Source: Thermodesulfovibrionales bacterium (GTDB lineage Bacteria > Nitrospirota > Thermodesulfovibrionia > Thermodesulfovibrionales > SM23-35). From it: a stretch of DNA of 10,631 nucleotides. How positions within the stretch are numbered: the first letter of the stretch is position 1; the number at the start of each line of letters is the position of its first letter. Below are positions 33 to 10,102 of this stretch, in pieces. The DNA lies in NCBI GenBank assembly GCA_963715195.1, contig CAVQRT010000011.1, positions 1 to 10,631 on the forward strand. The letters run 5' to 3'. The notes under the pieces were generated by a model. That model made no database searches and was not told the DNA's origin. It was given only the letters and a program-made list of their open reading frames with translations. A program made the position numbers and the translations under genes.

Positions 33-58
33 TGAGCTTGCCCCGAAAAAGTGGACAC
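33..58. repeat. IS3 right terminal inverted repeat (IRR)
   Basis: TGAGCTTGCCCCGAAAAAGTGGACAC; inverted partner at 1257-1282. Confidence 0.92.
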
Positions 59-62
59 GTAG

Positions 63-920
63 TTAAGTTTCATTAAGGAGTTTTTCATACTGCTCTGGAC
101 TCCTGTACCCTAAGGCAGAATGCCTCCTCTGACGATTATAGAACACTTCTACATACTCAAAAATACTAAGCCTCGCTTCCAGCCTTGAACGGTAACGCTC
201 ACCATGGACCAATTCCGTCTTGAGAGTCCCAAAGAACGACTCCATATAAGCGTTATCGTAGCAATTGCCACTTCTGCTCATGCTCGGGGTAATGCCGTAT
301 TCTCCGAGAAGCTCCTGATAAGCATAGCTTGCATACTGCCTACCTCGATCAGAATGGTGAATTAATCCTTCAGAAGGGCTTTGTCTGCCAACTGCATCCT
401 TGAGTGCTGCAGAAGCCAAATCCTGTGAGAGTTTATCGCTCATGGTCAATCCAATGATCTTTCTGCTTTGCACATTCATCACTGCTGCCACGTAAAGCCA
501 TCCTTCTGATGTCTGGACATATGTCATATCGGAGGCCCATACCCCCTCTGTCCGTCGATGGTCAATCAGCAAGTTTGCAGCCAAGGCATAGTTATGCCGT
601 GAATCGGTGGTCCGCCTGAATCGCCTTTTCTTTACATCTGCCCTTATGGAATGGTCCTTCATGATCCTGGCCACACGGTTTTTCCCACATCTGACACCAT
701 CGTCATTCAGTTCCGCCGCGATCCGCGGACTTCCATAAAGCCTTCTATTTTGACAGTGAACTTTCCGTATGCGTTGCAACAACTCCTCATTGGCTTTCTG
801 TCGTATGCTCGGCCGACGAGTACTCCACGCATAATAACCACTTCTGGATACCTTCAGTACTTCGCACATGCTTCTTACCTTATAGGTCTCTCTGTGTTCT
901 TCCATAAACTCATACTTCAT
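63..920 (-). CDS. IS3-family transposase OrfB (DDE/rve integrase core)
   Basis: Motifs VSRSGYY, YGSPRI, WASDMTY (D), HHSDRGRQY (D), DNAYMESFFGTLKTE (E), YNRQRRHSALGY. Confidence 0.95.
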   Translation of the reverse strand: MKYEFMEEHRETYKVRSMCEVLKVSRSGYYAWSTRRPSIRQKANEELLQRIRKVHCQNRRLYGSPRIAAELNDDGVRCGKNRVARIMKDHSIRADVKKRRFRRTTDSRHNYALAANLLIDHRRTEGVWASDMTYVQTSEGWLYVAAVMNVQSRKIIGLTMSDKLSQDLASAALKDAVGRQSPSEGLIHHSDRGRQYASYAYQELLGEYGITPSMSRSGNCYDNAYMESFFGTLKTELVHGERYRSRLEARLSIFEYVEVFYNRQRRHSALGYRSPEQYEKLLNET

Positions 921-1219
921 CTGTTTTGTTTGGAGAATACGGCCAAGGCTTTTTTTAAAATATCCCTCTCTTCCCTCGCCCGTTCTAATTCCTTCCGAAG
1001 CTTCCTGATTTCTGCGTTCTCCGGCTTAACACATCCCTTACCTGTAAAGGCCTTCTCACCATCTTTCAGAAATTCCCTCCTCCACAAATGAAGCAGATTC
1101 GGATGGATATCAAGATCCCGAGCTACCTTGCCTACTGGCATTCCCTTTTCCGTGACTAGCTGTACCGCGTCTCTCTTGAACTCACGAGCAAAATGGCGGC
1201 GCTTATCCTCTTTCCCCAT
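917..1219 (-). CDS. IS3-family transposase OrfA (HTH_Tnp_1)
   Basis: RRHFAREFKRDAV...VARDLDIHPNLLHLWRR HTH, then coiled coil ending ERDILKKA. Strong RBS GAGGAGG upstream. ATGA overlap with orfB. Confidence 0.95.
   Translation of the reverse strand: MGKEDKRRHFAREFKRDAVQLVTEKGMPVGKVARDLDIHPNLLHLWRREFLKDGEKAFTGKGCVKPENAEIRKLRKELERAREERDILKKALAVFSKQNR
949..956 (-). other. Programmed -1 ribosomal frameshift site (A AAA AAA G)
   Basis: Minus strand reads TTA AAA AAA GCC. The -1 frame (KKSLGRILQTKQ) is open straight into the orfB ATG, giving an OrfAB fusion. Confidence 0.8.
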
Positions 1220-1256
1220 TCACACACCTCCTCTGTCATCTTACAAATCTTTAGGT

Positions 1257-1282
1257 GTGTCCATCAATTCGGGGTAAGGTCA
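1257..1282. repeat. IS3 left terminal inverted repeat (IRL)
   Basis: Reverse complement TGACCTTACCCCGAATTGATGGACAC, 20/26 identical to 33-58. Confidence 0.92.
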
Positions 1283-1320
1283 ACTTGTACTGTTCTGCAT
1301 ATTCGAAAAGGCGGCTGAAA

Positions 1321-1412: not shown

Positions 1413-2849
1413 ATGAAAGTCCTAAATAGAAGAGATTTTCTCAAATTTGCTGGTGTAGGCGGGGCACTTTTAGTCACAGAGCTAAGTCCTTTGAATCTTA
1501 TTAACTCTGTCTATGCTCAGAAGTCCAAGGAAGTCGAGCTTACTGGAAGTTTAACTGCAGTGGATTTAGGAAGCGGAAAACCATTTATGGCCTGGACATA
1601 TAATGGAAAAATCCCTGGCCCGGAGATTCGTGTTAAAGAGGGGGAGAGATTACGGGTTCTTCTCAAAAATAAACTCCCGGAAGATACAACAATTCACTGG
1701 CATGGGTTGCCTGTGCCGAATAGAATGGATGGAGTTCCCTTCGTTACGCAAAAACCGGTTCAGCCCGGGGAAACTTTCATTTATGACTTTGAAGCCTCAC
1801 CCCCTGGTACTTACATATACCATTCGCATGCACATTACCAGCTTGACCGAGGTCTGTACGGCGCATTGATTGTTGAACCCAAGCGGGAAGAAAGGGGTTA
1901 CGACCGTGAGTATGTTCTACTCTTGGAAGATTGGGCCACGATCGACGGTGGTGGTCCGGAAGCCTCTAAAAAAGGAAGGATACAACTCATCATGGGAATG
2001 ATGGGTATGATGAGAAGAGGTGCCGGTGGCCCACTCCAAGAACCACTTTATGATGCATATACCATCAATGGTAAAGTCTTTGGAGCTTCTTTACCATTCA
2101 AGGTTAAGAAAGGAGATAAAGTAAAACTGAGAATTGCCAATCCTTCTTCTTCAACTATCTACACATTGAGGATAGCGGGGCATCCGATGACAATAACTCA
2201 TACTGATGGAAGACCGGTCCTTCCTATCGCTGTCGACGTTTTGCGCATAGGGATGGGGGAAAGATATGACGTTGAATTGAATGCAAACAATCCAGGGAGA
2301 TGGCTTATCTATAACGTAAATGATGGAAGTCCTGCCGGTGGCTGGAGGCTCGGAACAATCCTTTATGACGGCGTAACATCGAAATCTTATAACGATGATA
2401 ATTTGGCGAGATACCGCATAAGTGATTACAGCACTTTGGAAGGGATAGACGAGAGGTACGTGAAACCAGTTTCCTCCGTCGACAAAGTGTTCAGGATGAA
2501 TCTTTCAGGCGGGATGATGTCACCATACTGGACAATTAACGGAAGGGTATATCCCGATTCGGATGACATGTCTATCAAACAGGGTGATAGGGTAAGACTT
2601 GAATATTTCAATATGAGTATGATGGCGCACCCGATGCATCTCCACGGCCACTTTTTTGAGGTTGTCGGTACAGGTAGAGTGACCGGAGTCAGAATCAAGA
2701 AAGATACGATCATAATTCCTTCACACATGGGAAGAGGTGCAATAGAGTTCATCGCTGATAATCCTGGAGTGTGGTTCCATCACTGTCACAATCTCTATCA
2801 TATGGAAGCCGGGATGGCAAACTTGATCAAAAACTCTCCTGAAAAATAA
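1413..2849 (+). CDS. Tat-exported multicopper oxidase (CueO/CopA-like cuprous oxidase)
   Basis: Twin-arginine signal NRRDFLK. All four copper motifs present: HWHG, YHSH, HPMHLHGH, HCHNLYHMEAGM. Met-rich loop MGMMGMM. Confidence 0.95.
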   Translation: MKVLNRRDFLKFAGVGGALLVTELSPLNLINSVYAQKSKEVELTGSLTAVDLGSGKPFMAWTYNGKIPGPEIRVKEGERLRVLLKNKLPEDTTIHWHGLPVPNRMDGVPFVTQKPVQPGETFIYDFEASPPGTYIYHSHAHYQLDRGLYGALIVEPKREERGYDREYVLLLEDWATIDGGGPEASKKGRIQLIMGMMGMMRRGAGGPLQEPLYDAYTINGKVFGASLPFKVKKGDKVKLRIANPSSSTIYTLRIAGHPMTITHTDGRPVLPIAVDVLRIGMGERYDVELNANNPGRWLIYNVNDGSPAGGWRLGTILYDGVTSKSYNDDNLARYRISDYSTLEGIDERYVKPVSSVDKVFRMNLSGGMMSPYWTINGRVYPDSDDMSIKQGDRVRLEYFNMSMMAHPMHLHGHFFEVVGTGRVTGVRIKKDTIIIPSHMGRGAIEFIADNPGVWFHHCHNLYHMEAGMANLIKNSPEK

Positions 2850-2877
2850 GAGATTGAAGAAAGAGAAAGGAGCAATT

Positions 2878-3192
2878 ATGAGTTCATTTCCATTTATTAA
2901 TGGGATCGTGCTTCAGTGGGGAGGATACGATCGGTATGGTGGTGGAGGAATGGGGCCGGGTATGATGGGCTATGGAGTTGGTTGGGTTATGGGGATCATC
3001 AATATCATATTCTGGGTTGTGGTCATCATAGGTGTTATTTATCTCATAAAATGGCTTTCTTCAACTTCAAAACAAGGTGGGAAGGAAACAAAAGGGGAAA
3101 ATACCGCATTTGATATTCTAAGGGAAAGGTATGCCAAAGGAGAAATAAACAGGGAAGAATTTGAAGAGAAGAAGAAAGTCCTCAAAGAATAG
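2878..3192 (+). CDS. Gly/Met-rich single-TM membrane protein with C-terminal SHOCT domain
   Basis: ATG at 2878 follows AGGAG and is preferred over the TTG at 2854. GMGPGMMG motif, TM segment IINIIFWVVVIIGVIYLI, SHOCT signature AFDILRERYAKGEINREEFEEKK. Confidence 0.88.
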   Translation: MSSFPFINGIVLQWGGYDRYGGGGMGPGMMGYGVGWVMGIINIIFWVVVIIGVIYLIKWLSSTSKQGGKETKGENTAFDILRERYAKGEINREEFEEKKKVLKE

Positions 3193-5011: not shown

Positions 5012-5480
5012 AGTCCACCTCCTTCCTGGATTTTCTGAAGATACTGCTATCGCATTCATAATAGACTTCACGAGAGGAAAATACTATCAGAATAAATCTG
5101 ATTTTTTGTGAGAAAAGTTGCCTTAATGTGTAAGAATATGTCCTACTCAAGCGCTGTTTATGTCGATGGGAAATGAATAATATCAAAAAGTTAGAAGGGT
5201 ATCAACTTCTATGTGTATCCCTGACTATCAATGACCACGCCGGTGGTGTTGAGTATAGGGAGGCATCTTCCCTGAGTCTTTCCAAAGGTACTCTTGATCA
5301 GCCAAAAAAGCAATCAGGTATGCTTCTTTGAAATGGAAATGATAATTTGCAAAAGCTGGAGGGGTAATCACGCCTATGTGCACTCTTGCCCTCTATCGGA
5401 ATCTTGCGAGGTTTTTGTAACAGGGAGAATTGTAACCTGAGAAGAACAATAAAAGGAGTTCCGACAGACAGCATAATTAT

Positions 5481-6209
5481 CTAAAGTCCTCCCACTGAAG
5501 AATCAGATTCCAAGTTCTGAAGTAACTGAATAGTCTCTTCCAATCTTTTAATGTTATCCTCTGAAATACTTTCAAATGCTATCCCAATATCGTAGGTTTC
5601 TGGTTTTTCTCCTGCTATAACATTGCAGGATGCTACCCTTCCTGTAATATAGATATGTTCATCTCCGAGAAGAAACAGTTCCATCTGAATACTTTTTCCC
5701 ACTTCTAATGCACGTTGGCTTTCAATAAGCATACCGCCTAAACTTAAATTTTTTGTCCTATATTTCTCATGGAAAAATACTGTAGCTTCCTTTTCCTGAA
5801 TGCTGCTGAATCTGACATATAATCTTGTTCCGGTCTTTTTGTAGGCCTCAACTTTTTCCTCTTCCTCTTCACAATTAGTTTCAATAAAAGCAGATATCTC
5901 TTTTATCTTTCCATCTGTGAGATCCATAAATTGCATGCCTGCAGTATATATCGGAATAACATTTCCAAGATTGTCTTTCTCAGTTCTCGTTAGAAAAGAC
6001 CACATTATTTTGCCTTTTACCGTAAAAGACTTGTTTTGACCATTTATTGTCAATAGAGATTGACTACCCACAGACAATTGTTTATCAGTTTTTAATGCTA
6101 ACCCACCAAGGCTGATGTTGAGTATCCTCACATGTTTGGCCAGCACCATTTTGCCAGTAATTTTGAGAGCATCAACTTTATACCGCTTATGTCGTCTTTC
6201 AGCATGCAT
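5481..6209 (-). CDS. Tandem (two-domain) PilZ protein, putative c-di-GMP receptor
   Basis: Domain 1: RRHKR (RxxxR), NISLGG, YTAGMQF. Domain 2: RLYVR, NLSLGG, YDIGIAF. Confidence 0.88.
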   Translation of the reverse strand: MHAERRHKRYKVDALKITGKMVLAKHVRILNISLGGLALKTDKQLSVGSQSLLTINGQNKSFTVKGKIMWSFLTRTEKDNLGNVIPIYTAGMQFMDLTDGKIKEISAFIETNCEEEEEKVEAYKKTGTRLYVRFSSIQEKEATVFFHEKYRTKNLSLGGMLIESQRALEVGKSIQMELFLLGDEHIYITGRVASCNVIAGEKPETYDIGIAFESISEDNIKRLEETIQLLQNLESDSSVGGL

Positions 6210-6280
6210 AGATGTTCTAAGAAATGGAGATTATAATATCTTATCTTATAACATAGCTAAATGTGAGACTACTTATAAAC

Positions 6281-6317
6281 AAAAAAAATAGGGGCGAGAT
6301 TTCGATCTCGTCCCTTT
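6281..6317 (-). terminator. Intrinsic terminator after the NHL/TSP3 gene (possibly bidirectional)
   Basis: Hairpin GGGGCGAGAT-TTCG-ATCTCGTCCC on +. The A-run at 6280-6288 gives a long U tail on the minus strand, and TTT follows on +. Confidence 0.7.
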
Positions 6318-6426
6318 ATTACTCCGTTTTTTGGAAAGCATTGACTAATTCAGATATACCAAGGTTCATCAAAAAATCATTCGCATCATCAATTCTGCCT
6401 GATCAATATAATATAGTTCTCCGCAC

Positions 6427-7929
6427 CTATTTCCTCTTGTCATGTGGCACAACTACCGTAGCACTGAGTTTATGTGGTCCTGAACAATCTTCAACTGTGA
6501 CATTGATGATGTAACTTCTCCCTTGAGAGTTACCTGCTCTTTTGCTCCGAAGATTCACGCTTAGCGCATCCGTGATCTGATAGTCTGGCTCAAGAATATT
6601 TTCTTCATATATATCCCGGCCTTTCTTATCCATCTCGATTACATTCACAGAGTCTATCTGCATTATCGCAAACGGGCTTGATGAAACGATATTCGAAACA
6701 TCGATTGTAACGGGAATCATGCGATTATCAGGCGGCCACAGTATTGCTTTCGAGGGCAATATGCTCCCGGTTATGCCTTTACTATTACATTCATCGCAAA
6801 CGTCTCCAATACCATCATTATCCATATCTGCCTGATCCTTGTTTGGGTATTCTGGACAGTTATCTTCATTGCCACACACTCCATCTTTATCAAGATCGTT
6901 GGATGGATCATCTGGGCAGGTATCGCAGACGTTACCGATATTGTCCTCATCGGTGTCCTCCTGTGACGGATTAAAAACATCGACGCAATTGTCCTCTGAG
7001 TCTGCGATGTCGTCACCGTCAGCGTCTTCGAGAGCTGATTTAAATATCTGGATGCGACTATTGCCCGTGTCCGAGACGAGTGTTTCCCCCAAAGGTCCCG
7101 TGTTAACGCGGACAGGATAGTCGAATGCGCCTTCCTCGGTGCCTGGTTTTCCCCATTCTGTGAGGAGGTCACCTTCAGGAGTGAATTTCATGATGGTGCT
7201 TGTCTGTGGAAAAATGGCGTAGACATTATCTGAAGAGTCTGTTGCGAGGCTGTATACCGTCCCCGTGGGCCATGCCGCGAGGGGAATTCCGTCTCCGTCG
7301 AATTTCTGGATGCGAAGATTCAATGTGTCGGCCACATAGACGTTTCCTTTGCCATCAACCGCCACGTCAAAGGGTGATCTGAACTGCCCCCGATCCGAAC
7401 CTGTACCGCCCCATTCCGTGACGGGGGCCCCCTCTGAAGTTAATTTTTGAACGGTGTTATCCACAGAATTGGTGACATACACATATGTGATAACGCTTCC
7501 GTCGGAATCGATATCCGAGTGTGTCGCGATTCCAATTGGGATGAACGGAGAACTGCTGTTGCCAAACTGCAAGAGGAGATTCCCATCCTGATCGAACTTT
7601 GTTACCCCTGCCGCGTCTGCCACATACACATTATTTGAAGAGTCAGTCGCGATATCCCATGCAGTGGGGCACGCTGATGAGTCCTCTGCCCCGCAGCTCG
7701 TCCATTCGTCGAGAAACGAACCATTTTTGTTGAATTTTCTTATTTGCATAGAGTAGCCGTCAACCACGTATATGTTTCCGAGTGTATCCTGTGCAACTCC
7801 CCAAGGAAAGGGGGTTGACCACTGCCTGTCAAAAACAGGCGGATCTTCAATGGCATAAGCTACGCTTGCCACTGTTAAAACCATGCATACAAACACTGCG
7901 TTATATACGATGCTCTTTGCCTGGTACAT
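6427..7929 (-). CDS. Secreted protein: NHL-repeat beta-propeller + thrombospondin type 3 Ca2+-binding repeats + C-terminal LWPP-type Ig-like domain
   Basis: RBS GGGAGG and signal peptide ending AYA. NHL repeats (PWGVAQDTLGNIYVVD, PFDVAVDGKGNVYVADTLNLRIQKF), DxDxDGIGDxCD repeats, and C-terminal LWPPDNRM...GRSY...VVVPHD. Confidence 0.9.
   Translation of the reverse strand: MYQAKSIVYNAVFVCMVLTVASVAYAIEDPPVFDRQWSTPFPWGVAQDTLGNIYVVDGYSMQIRKFNKNGSFLDEWTSCGAEDSSACPTAWDIATDSSNNVYVADAAGVTKFDQDGNLLLQFGNSSSPFIPIGIATHSDIDSDGSVITYVYVTNSVDNTVQKLTSEGAPVTEWGGTGSDRGQFRSPFDVAVDGKGNVYVADTLNLRIQKFDGDGIPLAAWPTGTVYSLATDSSDNVYAIFPQTSTIMKFTPEGDLLTEWGKPGTEEGAFDYPVRVNTGPLGETLVSDTGNSRIQIFKSALEDADGDDIADSEDNCVDVFNPSQEDTDEDNIGNVCDTCPDDPSNDLDKDGVCGNEDNCPEYPNKDQADMDNDGIGDVCDECNSKGITGSILPSKAILWPPDNRMIPVTIDVSNIVSSSPFAIMQIDSVNVIEMDKKGRDIYEENILEPDYQITDALSVNLRSKRAGNSQGRSYIINVTVEDCSGPHKLSATVVVPHDKRK
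6787..7026 (-). repeat. Thrombospondin type 3 repeat tract within CDS
   Basis: DADGDDIADSEDNC...NPSQEDTDEDNIGNVCD and DLDKDGVCGNEDNCP...NKDQADMDNDGIGDVCD. Confidence 0.85.
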
Positions 7930-8019
7930 CTTTTCCTCCCTTTAGGTAGATATGTCTCGTTGACATACCTTCGTGACAAAATGACCGGACTAATACTCAG
8001 TTCCGATCCCCCTTTAAAT

Positions 8020-8052
8020 AAAAAAAGCCTACCCCGAAAGGTAGACTTTTTT
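8020..8052 (-). terminator. Riboswitch expression-platform terminator
   Basis: Minus strand AAAAAAGTCTACC-TTTCGG-GGTAGGC-TTTTTTT, located between the aptamer and the NHL gene start. Confidence 0.85.
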
Positions 8053-8055
8053 ACC

Positions 8056-8145
8056 GCCACTTCGATAACCCCTCTTTCCCTTTTTCAACCCCAGGAAAGG
8101 TGGCTTTGTGTCGCTTGATCGCTCAAGCTTTACCTTTTCGGTGGC
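8056..8145 (-). ncRNA. c-di-GMP-I (GEMM-I) riboswitch aptamer, variant with U at the C92-equivalent position
   Basis: Minus strand GCCAC-CG-AAAA-GGUAAA-GCUUGA-GCGA-UCAAGC-GACAC-AAA-GCCAC-C-U-UUCC...GGAA-AG-A-GGGGUU-A-U-CG-AA-GUGGC. P1, P2 with GNRA loop and P3 are all present, with compensatory pairs relative to Vc2 (U22-A45, U56-A84). Confidence 0.9.
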
Positions 8146-8152
8146 ATTAGCT

Positions 8153-8182
8153 AGTATGTCATGTATCTTAAATCATCTTAAA
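8153..8182 (-). promoter_or_regulatory. Promoter of the riboswitch leader: extended -10 plus upstream direct repeat
   Basis: TG-A-CATACT (8161-8153) predicts a start near 8146, immediately before aptamer P1. TTTAAGAT repeats with a 10-bp period (8182-8175, 8172-8165). Confidence 0.55.
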
Positions 8183-8616
8183 AACCGCTCCAGCATAAAA
8201 TAAGTTCTTTGGTCCTTAATGATATTAATACCACACCGTTATCAAGTAATCGGTGTTTTGAATCACATCGAGTAAAAGAATTGTCGTGATAACTATTTGC
8301 TAATTCCTGTATAAATAACGGGACCTGATTGAATATAAGTTCCAGGAAGTTTTTTTACCTGTGTGGTTCTTAATAATAGCGTTGACTGCTCATGGCGGCT
8401 GTCTATGTTTTCTTGGGAAATAGGTAAACCTCGAAAATGTCAGATTTGCGTATTCCTATGTGCAGGTGAGAAAAAAGGTATGCACAGTATGGGACGAATG
8501 TAACAAAACAATGATTGAGAACCTAAGAGGCAAAATAACTTCCTGTAATGTTGTATAAATAGAACCTAGTTAATCAACAACAGTCCTTTTGAAAATCAAT
8601 ATGCTCACATTTGTTG

Positions 8617-8625
8617 TGATATGCT
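8617..8625 (+). promoter_or_regulatory. Candidate extended -10 promoter for the methyltransferase
   Basis: TG-A-TATGCT about 40 nt upstream of ATG 8667. Confidence 0.35.
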
Positions 8626-8666
8626 AAGCTGGTCTAATAACCGCGGCAGCATTTTAAAGGGGCGCA

Positions 8667-9320
8667 ATGAAATCAAGAATTTCAAAACTTGCATCTGCTT
8701 GGGATAATGAATACCTTAGCAATGAACTGGGACTGATCTATGAACCATTATGGAGAACTGTTTCGGATTGTTTATTATCTGTATCCACTGGGCAAATCAT
8801 TGATTTCGGATGTGGTGACGGAAGATACTCATTTCTTTTAAACGACATGGGATTCGATGTGATCGGAATTGACCTTTCATCCAAGGCTATAAAATTAGCT
8901 GAGAAAATACAAAACGAGCGAAGCATTGAGGGAATACAGTTCACTGTGAATGACGGTATCTCTAATCAAATTCTGGACAATTCCATTAATGCGGTAATGC
9001 TCAATACTTATCACTGTCTGACATCTTCCTTACGCAAAATTGTCATGAATTCTGTTAGCCGAGTATTGACTCAGCAAGGTTTATTGATATTGAGCGCCCT
9101 GACACTTGAAGATGAATCTTACCCCCGCAATAAATGGATTGAAATAGCATCGAACACTTATAACGATAGGACAGGAAAGCTCTTCCATTTTTTCTCCAAA
9201 GATGAACTTGTCTCAGAGCTTCATTCATTTAAAATCACTAGTATTGAAAAGCTTGAGAATATTGTTCCCTCCGTGGGGAAAAAGAGTTCACTTTATGTTG
9301 TATTTGCCATGAAAAAGTAA
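8667..9320 (+). CDS. Class I SAM-dependent methyltransferase
   Basis: Motif I IIDFGCGDGR, motif II VIGIDLSSKAI, and VSRVLTQQGLLI. RBS AAAGGGG. Confidence 0.9.
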   Translation: MKSRISKLASAWDNEYLSNELGLIYEPLWRTVSDCLLSVSTGQIIDFGCGDGRYSFLLNDMGFDVIGIDLSSKAIKLAEKIQNERSIEGIQFTVNDGISNQILDNSINAVMLNTYHCLTSSLRKIVMNSVSRVLTQQGLLILSALTLEDESYPRNKWIEIASNTYNDRTGKLFHFFSKDELVSELHSFKITSIEKLENIVPSVGKKSSLYVVFAMKK

Positions 9321-9368
9321 TGCAAATGAAAGGCATTCTTCTTTCTGAACTCTTTACTATTAGATGTT

Positions 9369-9377
9369 TGCTATAAT
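9369..9377 (+). promoter_or_regulatory. Extended -10 promoter
   Basis: Consensus TG-C-TATAAT about 40 nt upstream of ATG 9419. Confidence 0.5.
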
Positions 9378-9418
9378 TATCAAAATTTCAGTTTTAATCA
9401 ACATCCCCGGCAAAGTGC

Positions 9419-9805
9419 ATGGTTATCAAACGTCACATAAAAAATCCACTTCAAAAGAAGGCCAAGAAAGGATTTCGCGGTTACCCCGTAGCGACCATTG
9501 CCTATTATGGTTCAAATAACGAAACAGCTTCAAAAGTAGCGGTCGGCATTATATTTGAGGAAGGTGCTGAGCCCACATACATGGAGAGGTGGGTTTCGGA
9601 GCACACAGATGTTCGAACTGATCTTACGATCAACAAAGAAATTCTGCAATTTATCGAAAAACATCCTGTGCGAAGCGTTGTAATTACAGATAGGATTATC
9701 GGTTGTCCTCACGAAGAAGGCGTTGATTATCCAGAAGGTGATGTCTGTCCAAAATGTCCTTATTGGGCTCACCGCGATCGCTGGACTGGTAGTACTATTC
9801 ATTGA
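9419..9805 (+). CDS. Hypothetical protein with C-terminal CPH...CxxC putative metal (Zn) site
   Basis: 128-aa ORF with protein-like composition: GFRGYPVATIAYYG and IIGCPHEEGVDYPEGDVCPKCPYW. Own upstream -10. Confidence 0.8.
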   Translation: MVIKRHIKNPLQKKAKKGFRGYPVATIAYYGSNNETASKVAVGIIFEEGAEPTYMERWVSEHTDVRTDLTINKEILQFIEKHPVRSVVITDRIIGCPHEEGVDYPEGDVCPKCPYWAHRDRWTGSTIH

Positions 9806-10102
9806 TGTTCAATTGTTCTTCCTGAAGCAAAGATTTTATTAATGAGCCTCGCGATAGCGGATTGCTCCTGAAAATCATGAGATTTAAGTCTTGTACCTCA
9901 AAAATATTTTCAAAAAGCAATATTGCCAAGAAAAAAAGCAATAATCTTATAGACAAGTATCACATAAAGGGGTAAGCTATTTTATATATTCCAAAATCGT
10001 TAATCCTTCTATTTGATGTATGCTCAAAAGATATCTATCAAATATTTTTTGATATGATGGAATGCATTTCGTATTAACCATACAACTGAAAGGAGATTGG
10101 TG

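Follow-up and report, generated by a model that had tools for sequence, protein, structure and literature searches.

A GEMM-I aptamer with a natural G20/U92 ligand pocket, a candidate dual c-di-GMP/3',3'-cGAMP OFF switch in Thermodesulfovibrionales

The reverse strand of a 10,631-nucleotide stretch of DNA from a Thermodesulfovibrionales bacterium (the window, meaning the whole stretch that was analysed) carries a riboswitch aptamer that belongs to the RF01051 structural family and has a G20/A47/U92 ligand pocket. This pocket lacks the C92 of canonical GEMM-I, the A20 of GEMM-Ib and the U20 of the UAU class. Our best explanation, to which we give a probability of about 0.45, is that the aptamer is part of a transcriptional OFF switch that would respond to both c-di-GMP and 3',3'-cGAMP, a reading drawn from sequence comparison.

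A cmscan run gave a single Rfam match above cut-off in the window, to c-di-GMP-I (RF01051), on the minus strand at 8061-8144. It covers the whole model (positions 1-87) with a score of 54.6 bits, the cut-off being 35 (E-value 1.1e-8). Position numbers are those of the Vc2 aptamer, taken from the Rfam alignment and published papers. The features of the switch and its controlled gene are as follows.

8056-8145, minus strand: c-di-GMP-I (GEMM-I) aptamer including P1, a three-way junction of P1, P2 and P3 (RF01051 match and pairing).
8145-8141 with 8056-8060 and 8140-8139 with 8063-8064, minus strand: P1 (pairing).
8134, minus strand: G20 equivalent (RF01051 alignment; the base preceding the G21-C46 pair).
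8107, minus strand: A47 equivalent (RF01051 alignment).
8065, minus strand: U92, where the model has C (RF01051 alignment, five runs and three aligned homologues).
8108-8133, minus strand: P2, with U22-A45, a 6-bp stem and a GNRA-type loop at 8119-8122 (alignment, pairing and homologues).
8067-8105, minus strand: P3, with bulged G83 (8074) opposite C44 (8110) (alignment, pairing and homologues).
8020-8052, minus strand: intrinsic terminator with a 14-bp stem, a 4-nt loop at 8035-8038 and seven U at 8020-8026, -16.2 kcal/mol (folding; conserved in homologues).
8030-8146, minus strand: predicted antiterminator, 8131-8141 pairing with 8034-8043, extendable to 8146/8030 (folding; complementarity in the subfamily).
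6427-7929, minus strand: controlled gene of 500 aa, with NHL beta-propeller repeats and thrombospondin type 3-like repeats.

The alignment reads the 3' strand of the aptamer as A91 (8066), U92 (8065), C93 (8064) and G94 (8063) and places the A48 equivalent at 8106; G20, A47 and A48 of the canonical c-di-GMP pocket are thus all present and C92 is not. Every model pair of P1, P2 and P3 is a standard pair, including G14-C93 (8139-8064) and the seven pairs of P3, the last of which is A49-U90 (8105-8067), and U22-A45 in P2 is compensatory to the C-G of the model. Among four close homologues, 97% of 104 cells were paired and six pairs had changed on both sides. A47 stacks between the ligand bases in the described structures, in which C44/G83 and A95 form tertiary contacts (PMC3764141). 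In the window, C44/G83 (8110/8074), A95 (8062), G14-C93 and the GNRA loop are present as bases, the contacts themselves being presumed. The internal loop that forms the tetraloop receptor of P3 in the model aligned with low posterior, and P3 of the window aptamer, like that of the whole subfamily, is a plain helix.

J1/2 is 4 nt long, one shorter than in the model. The same length was found in 30 of the 79 script-parsed G20/C92 aptamers of relatives, so that a register shift is unnecessary. A shifted register, with 8064 as C92 and 8140 as position 14, was rejected, as the short J1/2 accompanies R-C-C-G in those 30 relatives and P3 fixes U90 at 8067. Membership of the c-di-GMP-I-UAU class (RF03168) was also rejected: the score was 55.3 bits against a cut-off of 65.9, and the model has U20 where the window has G20.

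The base at 8065 was the same in contigs of five public runs (X1, X9, X11, X12 and X19); this support comes from contigs rather than raw reads, X8 had no coverage of 8065, and X1 may itself be the source of the window or belong to the same campaign. Together with U92 in homologues, these contigs exclude a sequencing error. A contig of a related strain in X11, ~94% identical to the window, had 32 differences over 553 bases, none of which lay within 7999-8146, the aptamer and terminator (p ~5e-5), suggesting that both are under purifying selection. The differences between another X11 contig and the window were confined to position 19 and the loops. In a genome of another genus of the same family (G022), a U92 aptamer with the same terminator precedes the ortholog of the controlled gene (52% identity over 481 aa). 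The genome of the window has an identical second copy of the aptamer on contig C12; it lies within a 4.9-kb, 99.4%-identical duplicate and therefore was set aside as independent support for U92. A preliminary description of this DNA had placed G20 at 8134 and U92 at 8065, with A47 kept, on a maintained fold, and had pointed to read support at 8065 and to other U92 copies as checks. The cmscan register and the pair changes among homologues agree with this placement, the base recurs in the five runs and in homologues, and further copies were found: the C12 duplicate, and a third RF01051 match on contig C22, which is G20/C92.

The riboswitch region as a whole (window 5166-10056) is duplicated at C12 6908-11800 (99.4%) and partly at C23 24430-25821 (97%), which may reflect strain redundancy in the bin (6.6% contamination) or a transposon-linked duplication. 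An IS3-family-like element with overlapping transposase ORFs (917-1219 and 63-920) occupies window 33-1283 and has near-identical copies on C12, C16 and C23. Window 1413-3192 (plus strand) encodes a multicopper oxidase with Tat export and, after it, a membrane protein with a SHOCT domain, likely a copper-handling pair. The sediment run X11 also contains, at a loose end before window 8094, an aptamer paralogue whose P3 differs and which ends in U92-C93-G94.

Could the element be decayed and blind to ligand? ViennaRNA paired A8138 with U8065 at a probability of 0.74. Such a pair, which is a folding prediction, would extend P1 and could close the pocket or lower affinity for any ligand, so that a fixed attenuator would remain; a J1/2 one base short of the model also fits decay. 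The stretch had no match in the sole RNA run (X22), which we read as no evidence either way. Decay is at odds with the unchanged aptamer and terminator in the 94%-identical strain, with the retention of U92 before the G022 ortholog, with the compensatory pairs and the conserved antiterminator complementarity described below, and with the frequency of a short J1/2 among C92 aptamers. We therefore consider it very improbable.

The terminator does not overlap P1 and so can coexist with the folded aptamer; a simple terminator scan had listed the 8020-8052 hairpin on the plus strand only. In the predicted antiterminator, the 5' strand of P1, J1/2, G20 and G21 (8131-8141) pair with the 5' arm and loop of the terminator (8034-8043), a fold that would preclude both P1 and the ligand pocket. 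For transcripts with 3' ends from 8034 to 8030, it is more stable than the aptamer fold by 2.4 to 8 kcal/mol. The complementarity was better than in shuffles, which preserved single-base but not dinucleotide composition, in 21 of 23 subfamily members (p <= 0.04); of the other two, one gave p 0.10 and one had no terminator in range. Pairing of each 5' strand with its own terminator was stronger than cross pairing (on average -15.1 compared with -13.8 kcal/mol; p 1e-4 by permutation, with kin that are not independent). As ligand binding is predicted to block the antiterminator, we infer an OFF switch, and by this modelling U92 would mark a subfamily of OFF switches in which the antiterminator covaries, which is new here. 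Cd1 of C. difficile follows such a terminator-antiterminator OFF logic (PMC9262584). The preliminary description was silent on the expression platform.

No minus-strand sigma-70 site in the window passed the promoter scan. The controlled gene has a purine-rich ribosome site at 7935-7940, and its product is likely secreted, judging from a hydrophobic N-terminus that by eye resembles a signal peptide. Directly downstream on the same strand (5481-6209), a gene encodes a protein in which two PilZ domains are present, adding another cyclic-dinucleotide receptor to the locus.

For a dual-ligand OFF switch we propose the following mechanism. Without ligand, 8131-8141 would capture the emerging 5' arm and loop of the terminator, and the NHL-repeat gene would be transcribed. 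Ligand binding would lock G20, J1/2 and P1, allowing the terminator to form and transcription to stop. C92 of Vc2 pairs in Watson-Crick fashion with the beta guanine of the ligand. At the alpha base, it is the Hoogsteen edge that G20 of Vc2 reads (PMC6140456). In the aptamer of the window, G20 would keep reading guanine at the alpha site, and U92 would form a Watson-Crick pair with the adenine of cGAMP or a wobble pair with a guanine of c-di-GMP, so that strict selectivity for c-di-GMP would be lost. G20/U92 would then mirror the solution represented by A20/C92, and a change of both bases would be avoided; when engineered into Vc2, G20A/C92U yields a c-di-AMP binder (PMC7288161; PMC9049102).

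The single change has been engineered as well. A class I aptamer with C92U binds 3',3'-cGAMP (review PMC12032345, citing Shanahan 2011), and C92U has been crystallised with c-di-GMP (PDB 3MUR; PMC9049102). Vc2 C92U is reported to keep a partial c-di-GMP response in vivo, with recovery at raised c-di-GMP and little effect on the on-rate, and pocket mutations to affect the off-rate far more than the on-rate (bioRxiv 10.1101/617340). This distinction matters for a switch that acts co-transcriptionally. The affinities of Vc2 C92U for c-di-GMP and cGAMP are reportedly similar and low-nanomolar, and a C92U-Spinach sensor is said to have responded poorly. No test of a natural G20/U92 aptamer was found in the literature searched, and key primary papers or supplements may contain one.

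These precedents bear on two other readings of the switch. In the first, c-di-GMP is the sole ligand of the OFF switch, the U92 wobble raises its threshold, and the link with cGAMP is an accident of the spread of one subfamily in two lineages that bear Hypr-type GGDEF proteins. The partial recovery of C92U and the preference of G20 for guanine at the alpha site fit this reading, and the binding of cGAMP by engineered C92U counts against it; we take it seriously as a possibility, if tentatively. In the second, the switch is selective for cGAMP, which is bound flipped (G at the alpha site, A at the beta site), and discriminates against c-di-GMP, making it a second natural cGAMP class beside GEMM-Ib. 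Scaffold and P1 are reported to sway the selectivity of GEMM-Ib (PMC6140456), which lends this reading some plausibility, but engineered C92U remains responsive to c-di-GMP and the 3MUR structure is a c-di-GMP complex. We regard selectivity for cGAMP as quite unlikely.

In the order of the window, RF01051 gave 126 matches in 36 of 61 genomes. By script with hand correction, 81 were G20/C92, 26 A20/C92, 13 G20/U92 and 6 ambiguous, with no A20/U92; the 13 include both copies of the window's genome and one with U93. U92 was found in eight of the nine genomes that have the aptamer subfamily of the window. A strict G20/U92 pattern occurred at no fewer than (at least) 119 GTDB loci, with ~210 estimated. 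Among the 119 matches listed, 86 parse as G-A-U and 26 as G-A-C with a chance match downstream, and sources include Geobacterales, Nitrospirota, Planctomycetota, Acidimicrobiia, Bacillota and Neptuniibacter. The variant is thus recurrent rather than a one-off, and neither rare nor new as a sequence.

U92 was unevenly distributed in a comparison that used one pattern, with a pyrimidine at position 92, and even samples, each including its U92 centre genome. In Geobacterales (the order of a Geobacteraceae genome; 101 genomes), 36 of 60 readable G20 aptamers had U92, compared with 3/130 in Bacillota (301 genomes, G20 only), 2/38 in Desulfobacteria (301 genomes) and 1/16 in Planctomycetota (251 genomes). 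With the centre genomes left out, the proportions were 34/58 for Geobacterales, 2/129 for Bacillota and 1/37 for Desulfobacteria. Were c-di-GMP the sole ligand, U92 would be expected to be common in the last two. By hand count, the 78 Geobacterales rows comprised 36 G20/U92, 24 G20/C92, 13 A20/C92, 5 with C92 and no position 20, and no A20/U92. A20/U92 was therefore absent from all 49 U92 aptamers (36 in Geobacterales and 13 in the window's order), the two lineages in which U92 is concentrated and which also use A20 aptamers (Fisher p 7e-5 for the Geobacterales set, in which kin are not independent).

Enrichment of U92 together with exclusion of A20/U92 is what one would predict were G20/U92 and A20/C92 two alternative readings of one A and one G, and both observations suit a dual or a cGAMP-selective switch; the exclusion is equally expected with c-di-GMP as the sole ligand. 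In both enriched lineages, most of the U92 rows come from a single subfamily. It follows that the Fisher values overstate the association, and a founder effect is possible, which weighs against the dual reading. The Hypr lineages carry U92 on three or more aptamer backgrounds, which counts against c-di-GMP alone. The same subfamily has G20/C92 and A20/C92 members with the same platform, and within it scaffold and platform are common to A20/C92 and G20/U92 members (e.g. G050), an arrangement that favours selectivity for cGAMP. Four aptamers of the genus Geobacter (L301, L302 and L303 of G179; L314 of G218) have G20/A47/G92 on a short-J1/2 scaffold.

The genome of the window has 17 GGDEF loci from 20 matches. 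The Hypr signature is defined by Ser at the specificity position and by the spacing to GGDEF (PMC6456294). One GAF-GGDEF protein (contig C7, 147666-148139) has Ser at the specificity position and the GGDEF motif 23 residues on, and by this signature is a candidate cGAMP synthase. The 16 other loci were translated and have Asp at this position in most cases; of two further genes (C27 3302-3767 and C15 4478-4942), one carries a frameshift and the other is degenerate and has Asn there. The Hypr-type gene (L277 211-2793, contig C7) adjoins a gene for a small GTPase that we take, from its appearance, to be MglA-like. The genome also has one diadenylate cyclase, and the SMODS CD-NTase domain (PF18144) was not found in it (97.8% complete). 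Among the 61 order relatives, 49 have the Hypr motif, including all 36 with an RF01051 match, and none of the 12 that lack the motif has a match. On this sequence evidence the order looks like an undescribed cGAMP-signalling lineage, and the 36-of-36 co-occurrence would also fit a cGAMP-selective switch.

From the 119 loci, 79 U92 genomes were drawn by script and eye, with same-genome repeats and doubtful rows dropped. Among these matches listed, the Hypr motif was not matched in 45 of the 79 (35 were matched, one of them not GGDEF); the pattern has a fixed spacing, and many of the genomes are incomplete MAGs and several are isolates. Those lacking the motif include Bacillota isolates as well as complete genomes of Neptuniibacter and Marinobacterium, and GGDEF genes follow two aptamers of such genomes. 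The lineage test, which covered 80 of 178 riboswitch-bearing genomes, found the motif in 14/14 Geobacterales (one seemingly spurious), 0/26 Bacillota, 1/12 Planctomycetota (spurious) and 12/28 Desulfobacteria (11 plausible). In Desulfobacteria, U92 occurred in none of the 11 motif-bearing genomes and both U92 genomes lacked the motif (p 0.5), giving no association. Among the matches listed, the motif was present in 34/79 U92 genomes and in 2/26 C92 or doubtful genomes; the second set is mostly Solirubrobacterales, and this difference was therefore not counted as support. Genes behind U92 aptamers (34 scanned, plus others) encode surface and signalling proteins, as behind any GEMM-I, including GGDEF, EAL, PilZ, HDOD, Fn3 and other surface proteins.

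The 45 genomes, the lack of association in Desulfobacteria, this usual c-di-GMP gene set and the tandem-PilZ gene next to the window's switch are what c-di-GMP as sole ligand would predict, and U92 carriers without the motif, among the matches listed, speak against selectivity for cGAMP. For the dual reading, the first two points are likewise adverse; in its favour are the engineered C92U precedent and the presence, in one genome, of a Hypr-type GGDEF beside many canonical GGDEF domains. The preliminary description had proposed that U92 could give a cGAMP or dual-ligand sensor by a different route, with Hypr-type GGDEF or CD-NTase enzymes as possible synthases. The lineage enrichment, the exclusion of A20 and the engineered precedent lend weight to this proposal, and the many U92 carriers with no detectable Hypr protein detract from it. 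U92 is widespread, and the cGAMP chemistry was known from C92U; on the synthase side a Hypr-type motif was present and the CD-NTase was not found.

Because the ligand of a riboswitch is assigned by family, U92 aptamers carry the annotation of c-di-GMP sensors. Should U92 accept cGAMP, this annotation would be wrong for over half of the G20 aptamers sampled in Geobacterales and for about one in ten aptamers of the window's order; the outputs of cGAMP would then include OFF besides ON, and cGAMP signalling would gain Nitrospirota as a new group. Nature would also have reached one asymmetric ligand by two different single-base changes, and the aptamer would offer a new scaffold for biosensors. 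A broader proposal, that the G20/A47/U92 aptamers of Geobacterales and Thermodesulfovibrionia form an overlooked second natural cGAMP class with flipped ligand, mostly OFF, governing a repressed surface-protein regulon of the Hypr-cGAMP pathway and extending it to Nitrospirota, seems to us rather unlikely. If the effect of U92 is confined to tuning c-di-GMP affinity, the aptamer is a natural and modest variation on a mutant that has been studied since 2009-2011.

Among known systems, Vc2 and Cd1 (c-di-GMP-I, RF01051) share with the window aptamer the fold, G20, A47-A49, G14-C93, A95, C44-G83 and the GNRA loop, and the OFF logic of Cd1 is that predicted for the window aptamer. The window aptamer differs in U92, in a J1/2 one base shorter and in an antiterminator drawn from the 5' strand of the aptamer. 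The GEMM-Ib (c-AMP-GMP) riboswitches of Geobacter (Gs1761, pilM), defined by A20 with C92 (PMC6140456), have the same fold and the same kind of Hypr-bearing host, and A20/C92 aptamers occur in relatives, some on the scaffold of the window aptamer. In contrast to these, the window aptamer has G20/U92, would bind cGAMP flipped and is predicted to switch OFF; the characterised Geobacter switches are ON, their output declining without cGAMP (PMC6456294). The omcS switch, reported to sense both ligands (PMC6456294), was rejected as a natural U92 aptamer that has already been tested: in G179 the gene that matches OmcS is preceded by an A20/C92 aptamer, which is thus no precedent, and U92 was found in none of the 16 aptamers read among the 17 RF01051 matches of that genome. 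The consensus of the c-di-GMP-I-UAU model (RF03168) shares U92 and A47 and differs in U20. The engineered Vc2 C92U (PDB 3MUR, 3UD3 and 3UD4; Shanahan 2011) has the same G20/A47/U92 pocket; the window aptamer, by comparison, is natural and conserved, and has another scaffold, its own platform and a Hypr-type synthase motif in the genome. By analogy, the switch of the window would work most like the engineered C92U aptamer placed on a Cd1-like OFF platform.
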